DNA from: Bacillota bacterium
GTDB lineage: Bacteria; Bacillota; Sulfobacillia; Sulfobacillales; Sulfobacillaceae
Reading direction: 5' to 3'
Assembly: GCA_021820485.1 (NCBI GenBank)
Contig: JAKADO010000006.1
Location: 1,926 to 65,925 of the forward strand
DNA length: 64,000 nucleotides
Below the pieces are notes generated by a model. It ran no database searches. It was not told the origin of the DNA and worked only from the letters and a program-made list of their open reading frames with translations. Shown here one piece after another: positions 35,366-42,923 of this stretch. The position numbers and the translations under genes were made by a program. The first letter of the stretch is position 1. Every line of letters starts with the position of its first letter.

Positions 35366-35815
35366 CTAGTTCCTACCCCAGTCTGTGATTTCTATCCCGA
35401 AGTTATTGCCAACCAGCATGACTCGCCCGTGTCCAACCTGAAGTCCATTGATTTTCACGGCGACTGGCTGCTGCCAGTCGTGATTGAGGACAAACTGCGT
35501 GCCAATTCCCCAGTTCAAGAGCGCTTTCACGGGAACGCTTTTGCCCCCCAAACTGACTTGCATGGTAACGGGAAGATGCATCGTGCGCTTGAGCCGAGGA
35601 TCCTCTGCCAAAGCCTGACGATGCTGCTCAGGTGTGGACGCGGAGCGTTCCGCCTCCGCCGATTGCTCGACCGATCCGGCAGTCTCCATCGTCTCGCCCG
35701 ACGTCTGCTCCACCGGCAACGCTTCGTTTCCCGGGCTGTCCAGCGCGTCGTTTGACAATGCCGCCAGCAACGCGTCAATCTCTTCCTGGGACAACGGGCG
35801 ATTGGCGTCCGCCAT
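35366..35815 (-). CDS. FliN/FliM-C (SpoA) domain protein carrying an N-terminal CheY-binding peptide
   Basis: LSQEEIDALL at the N-terminus, acidic linker, then LPVTMQVSLG...VKINGLQVGHGRVMLVGNNFGIEIT. Confidence 0.8.
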   Translation of the reverse strand: MADANRPLSQEEIDALLAALSNDALDSPGNEALPVEQTSGETMETAGSVEQSAEAERSASTPEQHRQALAEDPRLKRTMHLPVTMQVSLGGKSVPVKALLNWGIGTQFVLNHDWQQPVAVKINGLQVGHGRVMLVGNNFGIEITDWGRN

Positions 35816-35869: not shown

Positions 35870-36682
35870 TCACGGACCCGTGTACACTTTGGTGGCCAAC
35901 GCGGGGCGCGCTTCCCGATTTTTCCGGAAGATGGAGGGCGACGCGACCTCGAACCCCATCTCAACGTACTCCAAAAAGGTCTCGGTGGCTCCCAAAAAGA
36001 GCAATCCTCCCACACGAAGCGCGCTGTTCAACTTGCGCAGAACCTCGGCGCGCACGTCACCCTTGAAATAGATAATGAGGTTGCGGCAGATGACCACGTC
36101 AAAGGCCCCGGGAGGAGCATCTGCCACCAAATCATGACGCTGGTAGGTAATCCGCCCGCCTCCCAGAGGCGCCAACACCCACTGGTTCCCTTGGGGGCGA
36201 AGGTACTTGCGATACAATTCGGGGATCCGCTCGTAGTCCGCCTGCGAATACACCCCTTGCCGCGCGGTCTCCAACACAACCTCATCGCTGTCGGTGGCCA
36301 CGATCTCGTACCGGCGGCCCATTTCCTCCAACAGCAAGGCCGCAGAGACCGGTTCTGCCCCCCATGAGCATCCGGCTGACCAGATCCTAAAATCGCGCGT
36401 GGGAATGTCCCGAATGACGTCGCGGAAGCGCGTCCAATAGGGCCGATCGCGAAAAAACTCCGTTACGTGGATGGTGAGGTAGGTATGAAAGCGCCGATAG
36501 AGAAGCGAATCGCGGCGAATCGCCGCGAGGAACTCTTCCACAGTCGAATAGCCTTCACGGGTAATAAAGCTGTTCAACCGGCGTTCCAGTTGCGGACGCT
36601 TGTAGGCTCCAACATTAAAGCCAAGGCGCTCCAACGTCTCGACAATGGACCGCCAATTCGGTTCGTCATACGGCGCGTTCAT
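35870..36682 (-). CDS. cheR: Chemotaxis methyltransferase CheR
   Basis: YKRPQLERR, TIHVTEFFRD, IWSAGCS.G.EP, ICRNLIIYF; start at 36682 overlaps the cheB stop (ATGA). Confidence 0.92.
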   Translation of the reverse strand: MNAPYDEPNWRSIVETLERLGFNVGAYKRPQLERRLNSFITREGYSTVEEFLAAIRRDSLLYRRFHTYLTIHVTEFFRDRPYWTRFRDVIRDIPTRDFRIWSAGCSWGAEPVSAALLLEEMGRRYEIVATDSDEVVLETARQGVYSQADYERIPELYRKYLRPQGNQWVLAPLGGGRITYQRHDLVADAPPGAFDVVICRNLIIYFKGDVRAEVLRKLNSALRVGGLLFLGATETFLEYVEMGFEVASPSIFRKNREARPALATKVYTGP

Positions 36683-37713
36683 CGCATCACCCCTTGCACC
36701 CATGCCGCAATCTCGGCCAGCGGCCAGACCGCATCCGCCGCACCAACCCCAGCCGCCGCTCCGGGCATTCCCCAAACCAGAGCGCTGTCCGGCGACTCCA
36801 CCACCACTGTGGCTCCCTGCTGGTGGGCCTTGAGCGACCCCTCCGCTCCATCTTCGCCCATGCCGGTCAAAATCAGCACACCGAGGTTGCCGCCAAAGAC
36901 CTTGACCGCATCCAACAATGTCACGTCCACTGAAGGAATAACGCCATGGCGGCGCTCGCCCGCCTCACACCAGCAACTGGAAGCCGAAACCCGGAGGTGC
37001 TTGCCTCCGGCCGCCACCACGATGGGCGCTCCACTTAGCGCAACAGGCGTCCCATCCGGCGGCGCCTCAACAACCGGACTGCCGAGCAAGTCTCCTAGGC
37101 GCTCCGCAAAGGAACGCGTAAAACCCCCCGGCATGTGCTGGACGATTAAGATGGGAATCTGCGGCGTGCCCTCTAGGGTCTCAAACAAATAAGAGAGCGC
37201 CTTGGGCCCTCCCGTGGATGCTCCGATGACGAGCGCTCGAAGTCCGCGTGACCGAAGGTCAGGCGCAGTGCGTGACGCAGGCGCCAGCTTCGGCCGCGAT
37301 GGGACGCGGGGATGAAACCGGGCCATCAATTGGTCTACCATGTCGTCGAGGGTCCGGTCCACGTCTGGCTTGGCCAGAAAGTCGTCGGCGCCCGCATCAA
37401 TGGCGCCCCAAGTGGCACGCACGCCCTGCTCCGTATGTGCCGACATCATGAAGATGGTGCCTGTCCACGTCTTTCGCAGTTCCCGGACAGCCGCCATCCC
37501 GCCCATGCCCGGCATGATGACGTCCATCATCACCAAATCCGGATTAATCAGCGGAACTTGACTCAAAGCCTCCTCGCCCGAGGCCAAGCTCGCTACCACG
37601 CGCCAGCCCCGGGCCGTAAGCCGGGTGCGCAGCTGATAGCGAAAAAACGTCGAGTCATCCACAATGGCGACGCGGACGTGTTCGCCGTCTCGACTGTCTC
37701 TCAAGTTGTCCAT
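36679..37713 (-). CDS. cheB: Chemotaxis response regulator methylesterase CheB
   Basis: Receiver (IVDDS, MDVIMP) plus GASTGGP, VQHMP and TGMGEDG catalytic S/H/D. Confidence 0.92.
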   Translation of the reverse strand: MDNLRDSRDGEHVRVAIVDDSTFFRYQLRTRLTARGWRVVASLASGEEALSQVPLINPDLVMMDVIMPGMGGMAAVRELRKTWTGTIFMMSAHTEQGVRATWGAIDAGADDFLAKPDVDRTLDDMVDQLMARFHPRVPSRPKLAPASRTAPDLRSRGLRALVIGASTGGPKALSYLFETLEGTPQIPILIVQHMPGGFTRSFAERLGDLLGSPVVEAPPDGTPVALSGAPIVVAAGGKHLRVSASSCWCEAGERRHGVIPSVDVTLLDAVKVFGGNLGVLILTGMGEDGAEGSLKAHQQGATVVVESPDSALVWGMPGAAAGVGAADAVWPLAEIAAWVQGVMR

Positions 37714-39374: not shown

Positions 39375-39731
39375 TTACGCGGAAACCCACTTGCTCAGGG
39401 CCTGCATGACGCGCTCAGGCTCATAGGGTTTGACCACAAAATCCTTGGCTCCCGCCTTGATGGCTGACACAATCATGGCCTGTTGGCCCAATGCCGACAC
39501 CATGATGACGCGGGCTTTCGGGTCGCTCTGGCAGATCGCCTGCGTAGCGGCCACGCCGTCCATCTCCGGCATGGTGATATCCATCAAGACGGCCGACGGA
39601 TGGTGTTCGGCATAAAGCGATACGGCTTCCTGCCCATTGGCCGCCTCCACAACTTCATACCCTTCCTGCTCCAAGAGTTTTTTCAATCGCATGCGCATAA
39701 AGGCTGCGTCGTCGGCTATGAGAATCTTCAC
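39375..39731 (-). CDS. cheY: Chemotaxis response regulator CheY
   Basis: ILIADDAAFMR, MDITMPEMDG, VSALGQ, FVVKP. Confidence 0.93.
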   Translation of the reverse strand: MKILIADDAAFMRMRLKKLLEQEGYEVVEAANGQEAVSLYAEHHPSAVLMDITMPEMDGVAATQAICQSDPKARVIMVSALGQQAMIVSAIKAGAKDFVVKPYEPERVMQALSKWVSA

Positions 39732-39746: not shown

Positions 39747-42461
39747 CTAGTTCTTCACGCTTAATGCTTCCGCCCTCAGGAGACCGAGCACGGTCTCCGC
39801 CAGAACCGCGGGCTCAAACTTGGTGACAATGGCGTCCGCGTCAACCTGCGCGGCACGATCGGCGTGCCAATGTCCTGACAGAGAGGTGTGCAAGAGCACG
39901 GGAACGGCCTTGCTGCGCTCATCCGTCTTCAAACGCGCCGTCAGCGTGTAACCGTCGAGACGCGGCATCTCCACGTCCACCACAAACAACCGCGGCAGGG
40001 GTTCCCCTGCTTGTATGGCTGACCACAACTCTTCCCCGTCGGTGAAGCTCCGAAGCCGAATGCCCATTGGCTGCAACGCCTTTTCCACCTGCAGGCGGGC
40101 TACGCGGGAGTCGTCCGCAATCCACACGGAGACGTCCTCCGCAACCGCGGCGAAGGTTTGATTTTCGTCCAAAAAGTCTGGGGGCGCCACGGACGCCAGC
40201 AAGTTTTCAAAGTCAATCAACTGGATGGGCCCTAACTCCGGATGGTCAATCAGCCCCGTAAAGCGCGACGCATTGCCGGCTTCCAGCACGGCCGGCAATG
40301 CCTCGACCTGGTCCCACCCCACGCGAATCATGCGATCCACCTGGTCGACCGGGAAGGCCTGCACGGTTCGATTGAATTCGGTAACCAGCAAAAACGCGGG
40401 GGGCTCATCACCCTCTTGAATGCCCAAAGCCCGGTGCAAGTTGACCACGGGAATTGTCTGACCGCGAATGTGCAAGAATCCGTCGAGCCAATCGTGCTGT
40501 CCTGGCACCCGAGTGATGACAGCCCGCGGCAATGCCTCGCGCGTCTTGTACACATTGATGCCGTACCGTTGGCCGTCGCTGAGTTGAAAGACCAGGAGCT
40601 CCATCTGGTTCGATCCTGCCCTGAGCACATGGTCATCCTCAGCCCGCTCAACCTCGCCGACACTTACCGGCACCAACCGCCGCGCATCCACCATGAGGGC
40701 AAGCCTCCCATCGCCCAGCAAGGACACGCCGCTCAGCCATGGTGTCAGGCCGGTCAATCCTGCCACCGGCTTAATGACCACTTCCTGTTGTCCCCGCACG
40801 CCGTCCACCGCCAAGGCCGCTTGGGTGCGGCCATCCTTGACGCGCACGATGTAGCGGTCTTCATGCACTGCGGCAGAATCCAGCAATTCGGCCAGCGAAT
40901 AGACTGGCATGGGCGCATCGCGATCCGGCACCGCTTGGCGCCCCAGAACACTGCTCAGACCTGACTGAGCAATGTCTTCGATGCGCTCCACGGCGGCGAT
41001 GGGGAACCCGACAGTCCACGGACCAGCTTCTACGATGAGCGCCGTCATAATTGCCATTGTCATGGGCAACTCAATCCGGAATGTCGTGCCCTCACCTGGT
41101 TGGCTCTCAACGGCAATGGACCCATGAATCTCCTCGAGGAACGCATGCACGACATCCAGCCCGACGCCACGTCCCGAGATGTCGGTGATCTTTTCTGCCG
41201 TAGAAACCCCCGGGCGAAACAGCAACTCTGCCAGTTGGTCTTCGGAAGCGCGAGCCGCCTCGTCCGCGCTCATCCAACCTTGGCGGATCGCCTTGTCTCG
41301 CAGCTTTTGCCAATCGATGCCCGCTCCATCGTCGGCAATCTGCAAATGGACATGCCCTTGAGCGGCATACGCCGTGAGGCGGATCGTGCCGGTTTCAGGC
41401 TTTCCCTGAGCTCTCCGCCTTTCAAGGCTTTCAATACCATGGTCACAGGAATTGCGCAGGAGATGCAGCAAGGGTTCGTGCAAACGATCCATTACGACTC
41501 GATCGAGCTCCGTCTCCCCGCCCACCGTCTGAAGTTGAATTTTCTTGCCCAGTTTTTGGGCAATGTCGTGCACCGCCCGCGGATACTGCCGAAACAGGGT
41601 GTCAAGCGGCAGCATCCGCGCCCGAAGCGTCAAGTCTTGCAAGTCGAGCGCCCGCCTCCGCAAATGGTCGAGCACGCCCCGGGTCACCGGATCCATATTG
41701 TTGCTCCATTGATGTTCCAACTGGCCGTGGTCCAGCAGCAACTCGCCCAGCCCTTCGAGGATGGCCTCCAAGGTATCAGCGCTGATGCGAATGGTGGCAT
41801 CTCGACGCTCCACCTGCGGCGCTTGGCGCCGCGCCTCGCCCTCCGCTTTCTCCGGCTGCGGAGCCGAGGGCTCGCTGGCCACCATGGGCTTGGCCGCCAC
41901 CAGATCGTCGATGGACGCCAAGGCCTCCTGAATGGCGGAGTCAGTCGCGCTCTGCGCAGGAATAAGCAGATAGCTAACTTGTCCATTCCAGTCGGACAAC
42001 GCATCAGCCGGCGGATCACTCTCGGTCCCAGGCGCCAAGGCACTGATTGCGGTGAAGGCTTGAAACGCGCGAACTCCCGGCATGAGGCTTGCGGGATCCC
42101 AATTGAGCTCCCATTTAACGGCCTGACGCGGTTTTTCGGCTTCCCCCCGGCCGCCCCCCAGCTCCTCGCGCAGGGCGTCCACGGTTTGCAAACACAGTTG
42201 CTGAAGCTCGGGCGTCCACTCCCATTCGGGCCGGCCCCGTCGATCCATGGCGTCCTCAAGCCGGTGGGCCCGTTCCACCCACTCGGTCAGCCCCAGCATC
42301 CCGCCGGACCCCTTTAGCGTATGGGCGGCCCGAAACATGGCGTCCATGGGTGGTGGGGATTGCAGGGCCCCTTCCTCCAATGCGCCCAAAAGCTCGACGG
42401 CCTCTTCCACGAAGAGCGCACGCTCTTCGTCCGAATCCCATTTGACATCACTAAACCGCAT
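39747..42461 (-). CDS. cheA: CheA histidine kinase fused at its C-terminus to a complete CheV (CheW + receiver)
   Basis: P1 RAAHTLKG, P2 MPGVRAFQ, P4 LLRNSCDHGIE/DDGAG/SGRGVGLD, P5; then NQMELLVFQL..QRYGINV, IADDS, VDVEMP, HTSLSG, VTKF; 904 aa with no stop. Confidence 0.9.
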   Translation of the reverse strand: MRFSDVKWDSDEERALFVEEAVELLGALEEGALQSPPPMDAMFRAAHTLKGSGGMLGLTEWVERAHRLEDAMDRRGRPEWEWTPELQQLCLQTVDALREELGGGRGEAEKPRQAVKWELNWDPASLMPGVRAFQAFTAISALAPGTESDPPADALSDWNGQVSYLLIPAQSATDSAIQEALASIDDLVAAKPMVASEPSAPQPEKAEGEARRQAPQVERRDATIRISADTLEAILEGLGELLLDHGQLEHQWSNNMDPVTRGVLDHLRRRALDLQDLTLRARMLPLDTLFRQYPRAVHDIAQKLGKKIQLQTVGGETELDRVVMDRLHEPLLHLLRNSCDHGIESLERRRAQGKPETGTIRLTAYAAQGHVHLQIADDGAGIDWQKLRDKAIRQGWMSADEAARASEDQLAELLFRPGVSTAEKITDISGRGVGLDVVHAFLEEIHGSIAVESQPGEGTTFRIELPMTMAIMTALIVEAGPWTVGFPIAAVERIEDIAQSGLSSVLGRQAVPDRDAPMPVYSLAELLDSAAVHEDRYIVRVKDGRTQAALAVDGVRGQQEVVIKPVAGLTGLTPWLSGVSLLGDGRLALMVDARRLVPVSVGEVERAEDDHVLRAGSNQMELLVFQLSDGQRYGINVYKTREALPRAVITRVPGQHDWLDGFLHIRGQTIPVVNLHRALGIQEGDEPPAFLLVTEFNRTVQAFPVDQVDRMIRVGWDQVEALPAVLEAGNASRFTGLIDHPELGPIQLIDFENLLASVAPPDFLDENQTFAAVAEDVSVWIADDSRVARLQVEKALQPMGIRLRSFTDGEELWSAIQAGEPLPRLFVVDVEMPRLDGYTLTARLKTDERSKAVPVLLHTSLSGHWHADRAAQVDADAIVTKFEPAVLAETVLGLLRAEALSVKN

Positions 42462-42479: not shown

Positions 42480-42923
42480 TTAGAGGTGCGCCGCGCTGGC
42501 GATGCTTTCCTGAAGCCGATCTGGCAGTTCTTCAGACCAAGCCCACAACCACTCGTCTCCCATGCGAAACGCCCGGGTTATCCAGGAAACCGCCTCGGGC
42601 GGAACCAAATCCCGCCATGTGTCGTCCGGCAACGGTGCTCCTGGAGCCCAGAGGCTTTCCACTTGGTCGACAGCGATTAACGATGTTCCTCGATGGCCTC
42701 CCCACCTGAGCGCCATCTTGACGGGTGCCGACTCCAGACCCAGGTGAGGCCGCAGCGTCAGTACCGTCAAGGGCTGCCCACGAACCACCGCAACGCCTGC
42801 TATCAGGGGTGGGGTCTTTGGAATGCCCGTCACGCTCGGATCCGCCAAAATTTCCGTAACCGCCGACACCGGGGCGCCAAAAAGATAGGTGCCGATGCGC
42901 ACGGTCAGCAATTGTTCCTCCAT
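42480..42923 (-). CDS. cheW: Chemotaxis coupling protein CheW
   Basis: FGAPVSAVTEI, VTGIPKTP, GVAVVRGQPLTV. Confidence 0.8.
   Translation of the reverse strand: MEEQLLTVRIGTYLFGAPVSAVTEILADPSVTGIPKTPPLIAGVAVVRGQPLTVLTLRPHLGLESAPVKMALRWGGHRGTSLIAVDQVESLWAPGAPLPDDTWRDLVPPEAVSWITRAFRMGDEWLWAWSEELPDRLQESIASAAHL

Follow-up and report, generated by a model that had tools for sequence, protein, structure and literature searches.

A CheA Kinase That Continues into a CheV Module

The window analyzed here is a stretch of 64,000 nucleotides from contig JAKADO010000006.1 of a Bacillota bacterium of the order Sulfobacillales (assembly GCA_021820485.1, a 3.24-Mb draft in 164 contigs, 92% complete). Its minus strand carries a chemotaxis (che) operon in which the gene for the kinase CheA runs on past P5, the last domain of the kinase, into a module resembling the adaptor CheV, a CheW-like domain followed by a receiver (REC). 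The gene, here called cheA::cheV, starts with ATG at 42461, with GGAGG 4 nt ahead, and ends in TAG at 39749–39747; the GTG start of cheY follows 15 nt on, at 39731. A first-pass annotation of this DNA had described a CheA-CheV fusion in a single polypeptide, and indeed one open frame of 904 aa holds all the domains (Table 1).

The residues expected of a phosphotransferring kinase are present throughout. In P1, the phospho-accepting histidine H47 (codon 42321–42323) lies in FRAAHTLKGSGG (HTLKG), and H47, T48, K50, and G51 are invariant across 39 orthologs of 38%–86% identity, the set to which invariance refers below. P2 narrowly passes its Pfam cut-off in the query and scores higher (41 bits) in ortholog P0039, a member of the type B group described below; AlphaFold2 (AF2) predicts an alpha/beta fold for it, with a predicted local distance difference test (pLDDT) value of ∼90. 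The P3 helices (two long ones) are assigned tentatively from the AF2 model; the Pfam H-kinase_dim domain is not reported for the query, is listed for several orthologs, and is weak in P0039. The residues of the P4 boxes (H333, N337, D340, H341, G342, D377, D378, G381, and G430–G434) are invariant. NCBIfam CheA models match residues 127–596 with E values of 1e-87 to 6e-113, under their equivalog cut-offs.

Beyond the tether, the CheV-type CheW-like domain opens with the conserved N-terminal motif of CheV, VLRAGSNQMELLVF, for which the consensus in the module is (V/I)L(R/K)AGSNQMELLVF. The motifs on which the fusion had been proposed were all found in place: NQMELLVFQL at residues 618–627, QRYGINV at 631–637, VDVEMP at 827–833, HTSLSG at 858–863, and VTKF at 879–882. 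The phospho-chemistry of the receiver is intact, as had been claimed for its phospho-acceptor, with D783/D784, the phospho-acceptor D829 (codon 39975–39977), T859, and K881 all invariant.

An AF2 run on the full protein with a 39-row alignment folded all domains confidently (mean pLDDT 82.6). Values fell below 50 in residues 196–225, the linker between P2 and P3, and in residues 601–611 of the tether. The predicted model resembles beads on a string, without fixed docking between the domains. A search of the PDB by sequence recognized CheW and receiver structures only and no structure of CheV.

The C-Terminal Module Groups with Free CheV

Compared on their own, residues 612–904 match free CheVs of ∼300–315 aa at 32%–42% identity and 94%–99% coverage, the best with E values down to 3e-52 and scores up to 196 bits. 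The alignment runs nearly from end to end, pairing residues 4–285 of the 293 in the query with CheV residues ∼15–300. When 1.84 billion representatives were searched exhaustively with HMMER, 147 matched at E ≤ 1e-30. The best 150 representatives are ∼300-aa proteins, barring three from a Sulfobacillales clade and a few multidomain ones, and they align from their own residue ∼15 to their end. Within these best 150, the only proteins of CheA length belong to that Sulfobacillales clade, which includes the query, and none is a CheA of the F5 type, the class into which most known CheAs having two CheW domains fall. Long proteins were also scored, among the 8000 candidates sharing most words with the query: members of the clade reached at least 306 bits, and no other hybrid CheA exceeded 65 bits.

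Phylogenies agree with these scores. As dual-CheW references, CheAs were taken from plasmid and chromid records of Azospirillum thermophilum, A. brasilense Sp7, Rhodovastum, Microvirga, and Thermomicrobium roseum. In a tree of CheW domains, P5 of the query groups with P5 of Bacillota CheAs (support 98), apart from the clade of F5 P5 domains (support 98), and its nearest neighbors are two non-fused CheAs, P0044 and P0045. The second CheW-like domain of the query falls among the CheV domains. A careful maximum-likelihood tree of the whole CheW-REC module separates the CheVs and the Sulfobacillales clade from the modules of F5 and hybrid CheAs with an ultrafast bootstrap of 100 and an SH-aLRT value of 99; the CheV side comprises 73 free CheVs, 6 longer CheV-type proteins, 5 Bacillota CheVs, and the Sulfobacillales clade.

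Individual alignment columns allow the motifs to be sorted. All but VDVEMP had been taken as specific to CheV; YGINV and HTSLSG are of the CheV type, and D-x-EMP and K881 are common to all receivers compared. At N636 of YGINV, 98% of the 79 free CheVs have N, against P in the tails of F5 and hybrid CheAs. Within HTSLSG, 72% of CheVs share H858, where the F5 and hybrid tails have L or V, and 98% share S860. Because end-to-end homology, trees, and column statistics agree, the C-terminal pair is identified as a genuine CheV by descent, as first proposed, and not as a duplicated P5 or as the "Class 5" domain of F5 CheAs.

The source of the module within CheV was also considered. Pairwise comparison favors gammaproteobacterial CheVs (37%–42% identity versus 25%–35% for Bacillota CheVs); a proteobacterial origin was nevertheless not adopted, and in the careful tree the clade comes out, with weak support (54/83), as sister to the group containing the Bacillota CheVs. 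Clustering with this same Bacillota group are P0332 (483 aa) and similar proteins of 479–543 aa, CheV-type proteins that carry an extra Hpt domain at the C terminus (CheW-REC-Hpt).

The nearest non-fused relatives hold no visible trace of the route to fusion. In the operons of P0044 and P0045, which read MCP-CheW-CheA-CheB-CheX-CheY-...-CheD-FliN-CheR, there is no cheV; one directly downstream of cheA would have been a trace of fusion by loss of a stop codon. The JGI metagenome contigs that carry these nearest non-fused CheAs (L022 and L024) have che operons that begin with protoglobin-MCP genes, which suggests that the chemotaxis system of the sister lineage senses oxygen or gas. One of the two contigs also has a gene for a protoglobin-GGDEF-EAL protein.

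Conservation and Spread of the Fusion

The full architecture is common to ∼44 protein clusters of ∼900 aa at 38%–86% identity, drawn from NCBI, JGI, ENA, and Logan. The closest proteins come from a metagenome-assembled genome (MAG) of Sulfobacillus acidophilus (72% identity), from S. thermotolerans (65%), S. harzensis (64%), and S. thermosulfidooxidans (∼40%), and from Bacillota MAGs. Public annotations call the protein CheA, CheW, or a hybrid kinase.

Across 61 related genomes, the C-terminal module gave 27 strong matches in 24 genomes, which represent three families of the order. Every one of these matches lies within an open frame of 660–1119 aa, and a frame of ∼300 aa, the size of a free CheV, was found in none of the 61. 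The host genome has three CheW-like domains in all, two in CheA::CheV and one in the cheW directly upstream, and neither a second CheA nor a free CheV was found in it. Six relatives, of which four are complete or nearly complete, were checked and likewise have exactly three CheW domains each, in the arrangement seen here. The fusion is present in all chemotactic relatives examined, always with a single CheA::CheV and a single free CheW and never with a free CheV, and the che operon is syntenic in relatives. The fusion is thus judged to be real and conserved across the order.

To place the order within its phylum, 400 genomes drawn evenly across the phylum were searched. CheV matches occurred in 28, and all 28 are free-standing, in frames of 290–351 aa; the fused form is therefore confined, within this sample, to the Sulfobacillales.

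Two types of the fused protein can be distinguished by the identity of their modules to that in the window: type A at 55%–84% and type B, which includes S. thermosulfidooxidans, at 29%–36%. Independent origins of the two were considered because a tree of the CheW domain alone leaves them apart, and were rejected because trees of the full module unite them, with support of 98/97 in the careful tree and of 92.9 and 97 in quick ones. The P5 domains of types A and B join likewise (96). As the modules and the P5 domains of the two types each form one clade, the data fit a single fusion in the ancestor of the order.

The Operon and Its Free CheW

The operon reads, on the minus strand, cheW, cheA::cheV, cheY, a gene for an HD-domain protein, a CheC-like gene, cheB, cheR, and a FliN-like gene, with two MCP genes placed divergently upstream (Table 1). 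The HD-domain gene and the CheC-like gene are kept in the operons of both types, in the order cheY-HD-cheC in type A and HD-cheC-cheY in type B. The host genome lacks CheD; CheZ was not found in it either, and only the weak CheC-like gene is present. fliG was found, and because of it and of the FliN-like gene in the operon we infer that the che system serves flagellar chemotaxis.

Table 1. Features of the cheA::cheV locus, in coordinates of the window
Feature	Position	Strand	Basis or remark
cheA::cheV	39747..42461	-	One uninterrupted open reading frame (ORF), 904 aa
P1 / Hpt, residues ∼11-101	42159..42431	-	Pfam Hpt 15-99, 7.6e-15
P2 (CheY/CheB-docking), residues ∼114-192	41886..42122	-	Pfam P2 121-188, 23.2 bits vs cut-off 23
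Putative P3 dimerization helices, residues ∼228-282	41616..41780	-	AF2 helices 228-251 and 258-282
P4 kinase (HATPase_c), residues ∼290-468; N, G1, F, G2 boxes	41058..41594	-	Pfam 326-468, 1.5e-17
P5, first CheW-like domain, residues 470-597	40671..41054	-	Hidden Markov model envelope of its own, 470-597
Flexible, variable tether from P5 to CheV module, residues 598-611	40629..40670	-	Not conserved among 12 orthologs
CheV-type CheW-like domain, residues 612-763	40173..40628	-	Holds YGINVYK; Pfam CheW found twice in the protein, best stretch 622-757
In-frame GTG (V612), proposed internal start	40626..40628	-	GAGG 8 nt upstream
CheV-type receiver, residues 778-904	39750..40130	-	Pfam Response_reg 779-882, 3.2e-14
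cheW, 147 aa, directly upstream of cheA::cheV	42480..42923	-	Pfam CheW, model positions 1-65 only
cheY, 118 aa	39375..39731	-	Pfam 1.4e-32; NCBIfam CheY_Halo 4e-35
HD-domain (HD-GYP-like) protein, 339 aa	38304..39323	-	Pfam HD_5 8.6e-7 (weak); syntenic in relatives
Candidate CheC/CheX-like phosphatase, 183 aa	37735..38286	-	NCBIfam CheC_Thtogales 3.6e-8, under cut-off; syntenic in relatives
cheB	36679..37713	-	Pfam CheB_methylest + Response_reg
cheR	35870..36775	-	Pfam CheR + CheR_N
Small FliN-like (FliMN_C) protein, operon end	35366..35815	-	Pfam FliMN_C 3.3e-15
Divergent MCP, HAMP + MCPsignal, 679 aa	43130..45169	+	64% identical ortholog adjoins type B cheA::cheV
Second MCP, 530 aa	45319..46911	+	Divergently upstream of che operon

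The upstream cheW is the sole free CheW-domain gene of the genome, and the C-terminal half of its product has diverged: the match ends at position 65 of the 138-position Pfam model. Three type A relatives show the same half-match (model positions 1–64 or 1–65, ∼45 bits); in type B relatives the CheW is canonical (positions 1–123, 88 bits). When the free CheW was compared by BLASTP with the CheW of a non-fused sister operon, the first 65 residues aligned and the rest did not. The divergence of the C-terminal subdomain of the free CheW seems to postdate the CheV fusion. We might speculate from this hint that in type A much of the coupling load may be carried by the tethered CheV.

A receiver-like sequence also lies just outside the window. 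A fragment of 53 codons (MRTFPDGQALWEAVEAGNALPRLFILDVEMPRMGGYTL...; G000:C36:66037-66204 on the plus strand, the same as L036:2177-2338), ∼75 nt from the end of the contig, is 61% identical to the receiver of CheA::CheV. It follows an EAL-like fragment and is broken by a stop, and is either a pseudogene remnant or the chimeric end of a contig from a co-assembled relative.

Function of the Tethered CheV and Alternative Explanations

In B. subtilis, phosphorylation of CheV is reported to modulate coupling, giving fast adaptation. By analogy, the tethered CheW-like domain would be a coupling domain held 1:1 next to its own kinase, where it would most likely occupy, within the receptor-kinase lattice, a CheW position adjacent to P5. 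P1 phosphorylated on H47 would pass its phosphate to D829, either in cis or across the dimer, in competition with CheY and CheB. The phosphorylated receiver would then feed back on the coupling of receptor and kinase, a form of fast adaptation, and would also drain phosphate. Taken as a whole, a CheA::CheV of single origin with tethered coupling and phospho-feedback is the best explanation of the locus, and we put its probability at about 75%.

Several points weigh against this explanation. The mechanism of the fused CheV is inferred by analogy alone, and the role of CheV itself is still debated between an adaptor for particular receptors, adaptation, and a phosphate sink (PMC4742279, PMC12691637). 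The predicted template modeling score of the AF2 model is 0.43, with no defined arrangement between domains, which speaks against reading the proposed lattice position from the model. The half-diverged free CheW of type A blurs how coupling is shared between CheW and the tethered CheV. Finally, the CheV references in the trees were taken from the best matches to the query, which may bias the place of the clade inside CheV; this choice leaves the separation from F5 and hybrid modules unaffected.

The main rival takes the receiver as a phosphate sink alone, as in CheAY of H. pylori, with the CheW-like domain merely anchoring the receiver in the array and giving no feedback on coupling. In reviews, a receiver fused to CheA is usually assigned the role of "phosphate sink" (PMC10782961), an additional sink would be useful with no CheZ or CheD found and a weak CheC-like gene, and the high local concentration would favor rapid transfer to D829. 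A bare receiver would, however, suffice for a sink, whereas the whole CheV unit, including the CheV-specific residues of both domains, is conserved over 38%–86% identity. The sink-type receivers of hybrid CheAs are, moreover, a different lineage in the module tree. We consider a pure sink unlikely.

Another possibility is that the gene yields two products, the full-length CheA::CheV and a free CheV started from the in-frame GTG, comparable to the short form of CheA in E. coli. The first-pass annotation had pointed to this codon, and both the GTG and the GAGG are present, precisely where the CheV-homologous region begins. Codon 612 is GTG, however, in only 4 of 12 orthologs and otherwise GTA, GTC, ATA, ATC, or ATT; the closest relative, with an 84% identical module, has GTA, and the GAGG is missing from most orthologs. 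M620 (ATG) is conserved in all 12 type A orthologs and might serve instead, but it lacks a Shine-Dalgarno (SD) sequence in 10 of the 12, and a start there would cost ∼20 N-terminal residues of CheV. Since 11 of the 94 in-frame ATG, GTG, and TTG codons of the ORF carry an equal SD-like 4-mer upstream, the site at 40628 looks like no more than chance expectation. The site itself thus stands, its use as a start for free CheV does not, and a separate CheV product is improbable.

The protein might instead be an ordinary member of the alphaproteobacterial F5 family of dual-CheW CheAs (Azospirillum CheA1, Azorhizobium CheA), arisen by duplication of a CheW-like domain. The Pfam order is the same as in the 920-aa CheA of Azospirillum thermophilum (Hpt, H-kinase_dim, HATPase_c, two CheW, REC), and CheAs that carry two CheW domains were interpreted as independent duplications (Berry et al., 2023, PMC10782961). 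Yet a tblastn comparison of P5-CheW-REC with the Azospirillum protein gave 23% identity (E = 2e-6). In the CheW tree, the second domains of four F5 references sit on a very long branch on the side of P5; P5 of the query groups with the Bacillota CheAs, and the module tree divides the F5 modules from the group of CheV and Sulfobacillus (100/99). These trees already contradict an F5 membership, which we regard as highly improbable.

Least credible, and negligible in our view, is an assembly or sequencing artifact in which cheA and cheV, as separate genes, became joined through an indel or the loss of a stop codon: the host genome is indeed a metagenome-type draft of 164 contigs, but the same unbroken frame recurs in the ∼44 protein clusters, including those from closed genomes of 2.6–3.6 Mb, and no relative has a separate cheV, which excludes an artifact for the clade and makes one very unlikely for the host genome.

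Relation to Known Chemosensory Systems

CheV is typically a separate protein, as in the B. subtilis prototype and in Salmonella, Campylobacter, and Helicobacter. The module in the window is like these in its CheW-like domain and receiver, which align with them end to end. It differs in being tied by ∼14 residues to the C terminus of P5 of CheA, and neither the host genome nor the examined genomes of the order contain a free CheV beside it.

The domain order as such is not new. The view of the first-pass annotation that a bare receiver is usually all that a hybrid CheA carries was an overstatement: P5-CheW-REC tails have already been catalogued, and a second CheW domain occurs in ∼8% of CheAs, nearly all of them in class F5, with some in F1 and one in F10 (Berry et al., 2023, PMC10782961). 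Vass et al. name the architecture CheA.V and its second domain "Class 5," which they say is not a CheV analog and which they give the highest priority for future study (bioRxiv 10.1101/2022.05.07.491035). CheA1 of A. brasilense, CheA1 of Rhodospirillum centenum, and CheA of Azorhizobium caulinodans share the Pfam domain order of CheA::CheV and, like it, are the sole or main kinase of their che operon. The architecture is in this sense the standard one of a defined class, but the descent is not: the second CheW and receiver of F5 CheAs belong to "Class 5" and those of CheA::CheV to the CheV lineage, and the kinase core of CheA::CheV is of the Bacillota type, with P2 present.

The best full-length matches without a fusion are CheAs of Bacillota (Thermaerobacter, Paenibacillus, and Bacillus). 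The nearest non-fused CheAs and the CheC-like gene point indirectly to an affinity with class F1; CheD is absent. Coupling domains have been added after P5 of CheAs of the Bacillota or Chloroflexota type in other cases as well, namely in the F1 CheAs with an extra CheW recorded by Berry et al. (2023) and in two metagenomic proteins found here, P0094 (840 aa) and P0113 (856 aa). The latter read Hpt-P2-P3-HATPase_c-CheW-CheW, without a receiver; their extra domain groups with free CheW, not with CheV or P5, and they represent a third separate way of adding a coupling domain to CheA.

The 1015-aa CheA of Thermomicrobium roseum (L008:2756-5800, plasmid NC_011961), an example of these F1 CheAs, has yet another order, P5-CheW-REC-CheW. 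Its three extra pieces lie on very long branches, and the middle CheW-REC groups, if weakly, with the modules of F5 CheAs and not with CheV. Hybrid CheAs such as CheAY of H. pylori, FrzE of Myxococcus, and ChpA of Pseudomonas resemble CheA::CheV in having a phospho-accepting receiver of their own at the C terminus. Theirs is a bare receiver directly after P5, which reaches at most the 65 bits given above against the CheV module and falls outside CheV in the tree.

Searches of the literature for "CheA-CheV" and "fused to CheA" returned no relevant paper, and among publications on chemotaxis or CheA in Sulfobacillus none was found that describes a CheA::CheV protein. Sulfobacillus is not mentioned in the accessible portion of the supplements to Berry et al. 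(2023) (PMC10782961).

Implications

CheV is common: one paper counts it in about 60% of the genomes sequenced (PMC4742279). What it does and where it sits in the chemoreceptor array are nonetheless unsettled. CheA::CheV is not a new kind of system but a modest variant of a known architecture. With the domain order already known, the modest new points are the true CheV descent of the module and its independent origin. Because the pair is CheV by descent, the Sulfobacillales protein is, on the sequence evidence, an exception to the published generalization that the CheW-REC tails of CheAs are not CheV.

In a bolder form of the mechanism, the tethered CheV would be fixed in the CheW position adjoining P5 of its own phosphorylating kinase and would act as the main coupling protein of the core unit, with the half-diverged free CheW relegated to CheW-only rings or to another role. 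We hold this to be doubtful. If true, it would contradict the published generalization that a CheW-REC pair within CheA never acts as CheV, and structural studies of CheV would gain a ready-made construct.

In the Sulfobacillales, a genuine CheV was joined to CheA a single time, and the order has since retained it as its sole CheV. The fusion imposes a constraint of both stoichiometry and geometry, with one CheV per CheA protomer on a tether of ∼14 residues from P5, and it represents an independent second origin of the two-CheW architecture of CheA. It also offers a convenient single-chain construct for studies of phosphotransfer and for electron cryomicroscopy and cryotomography.

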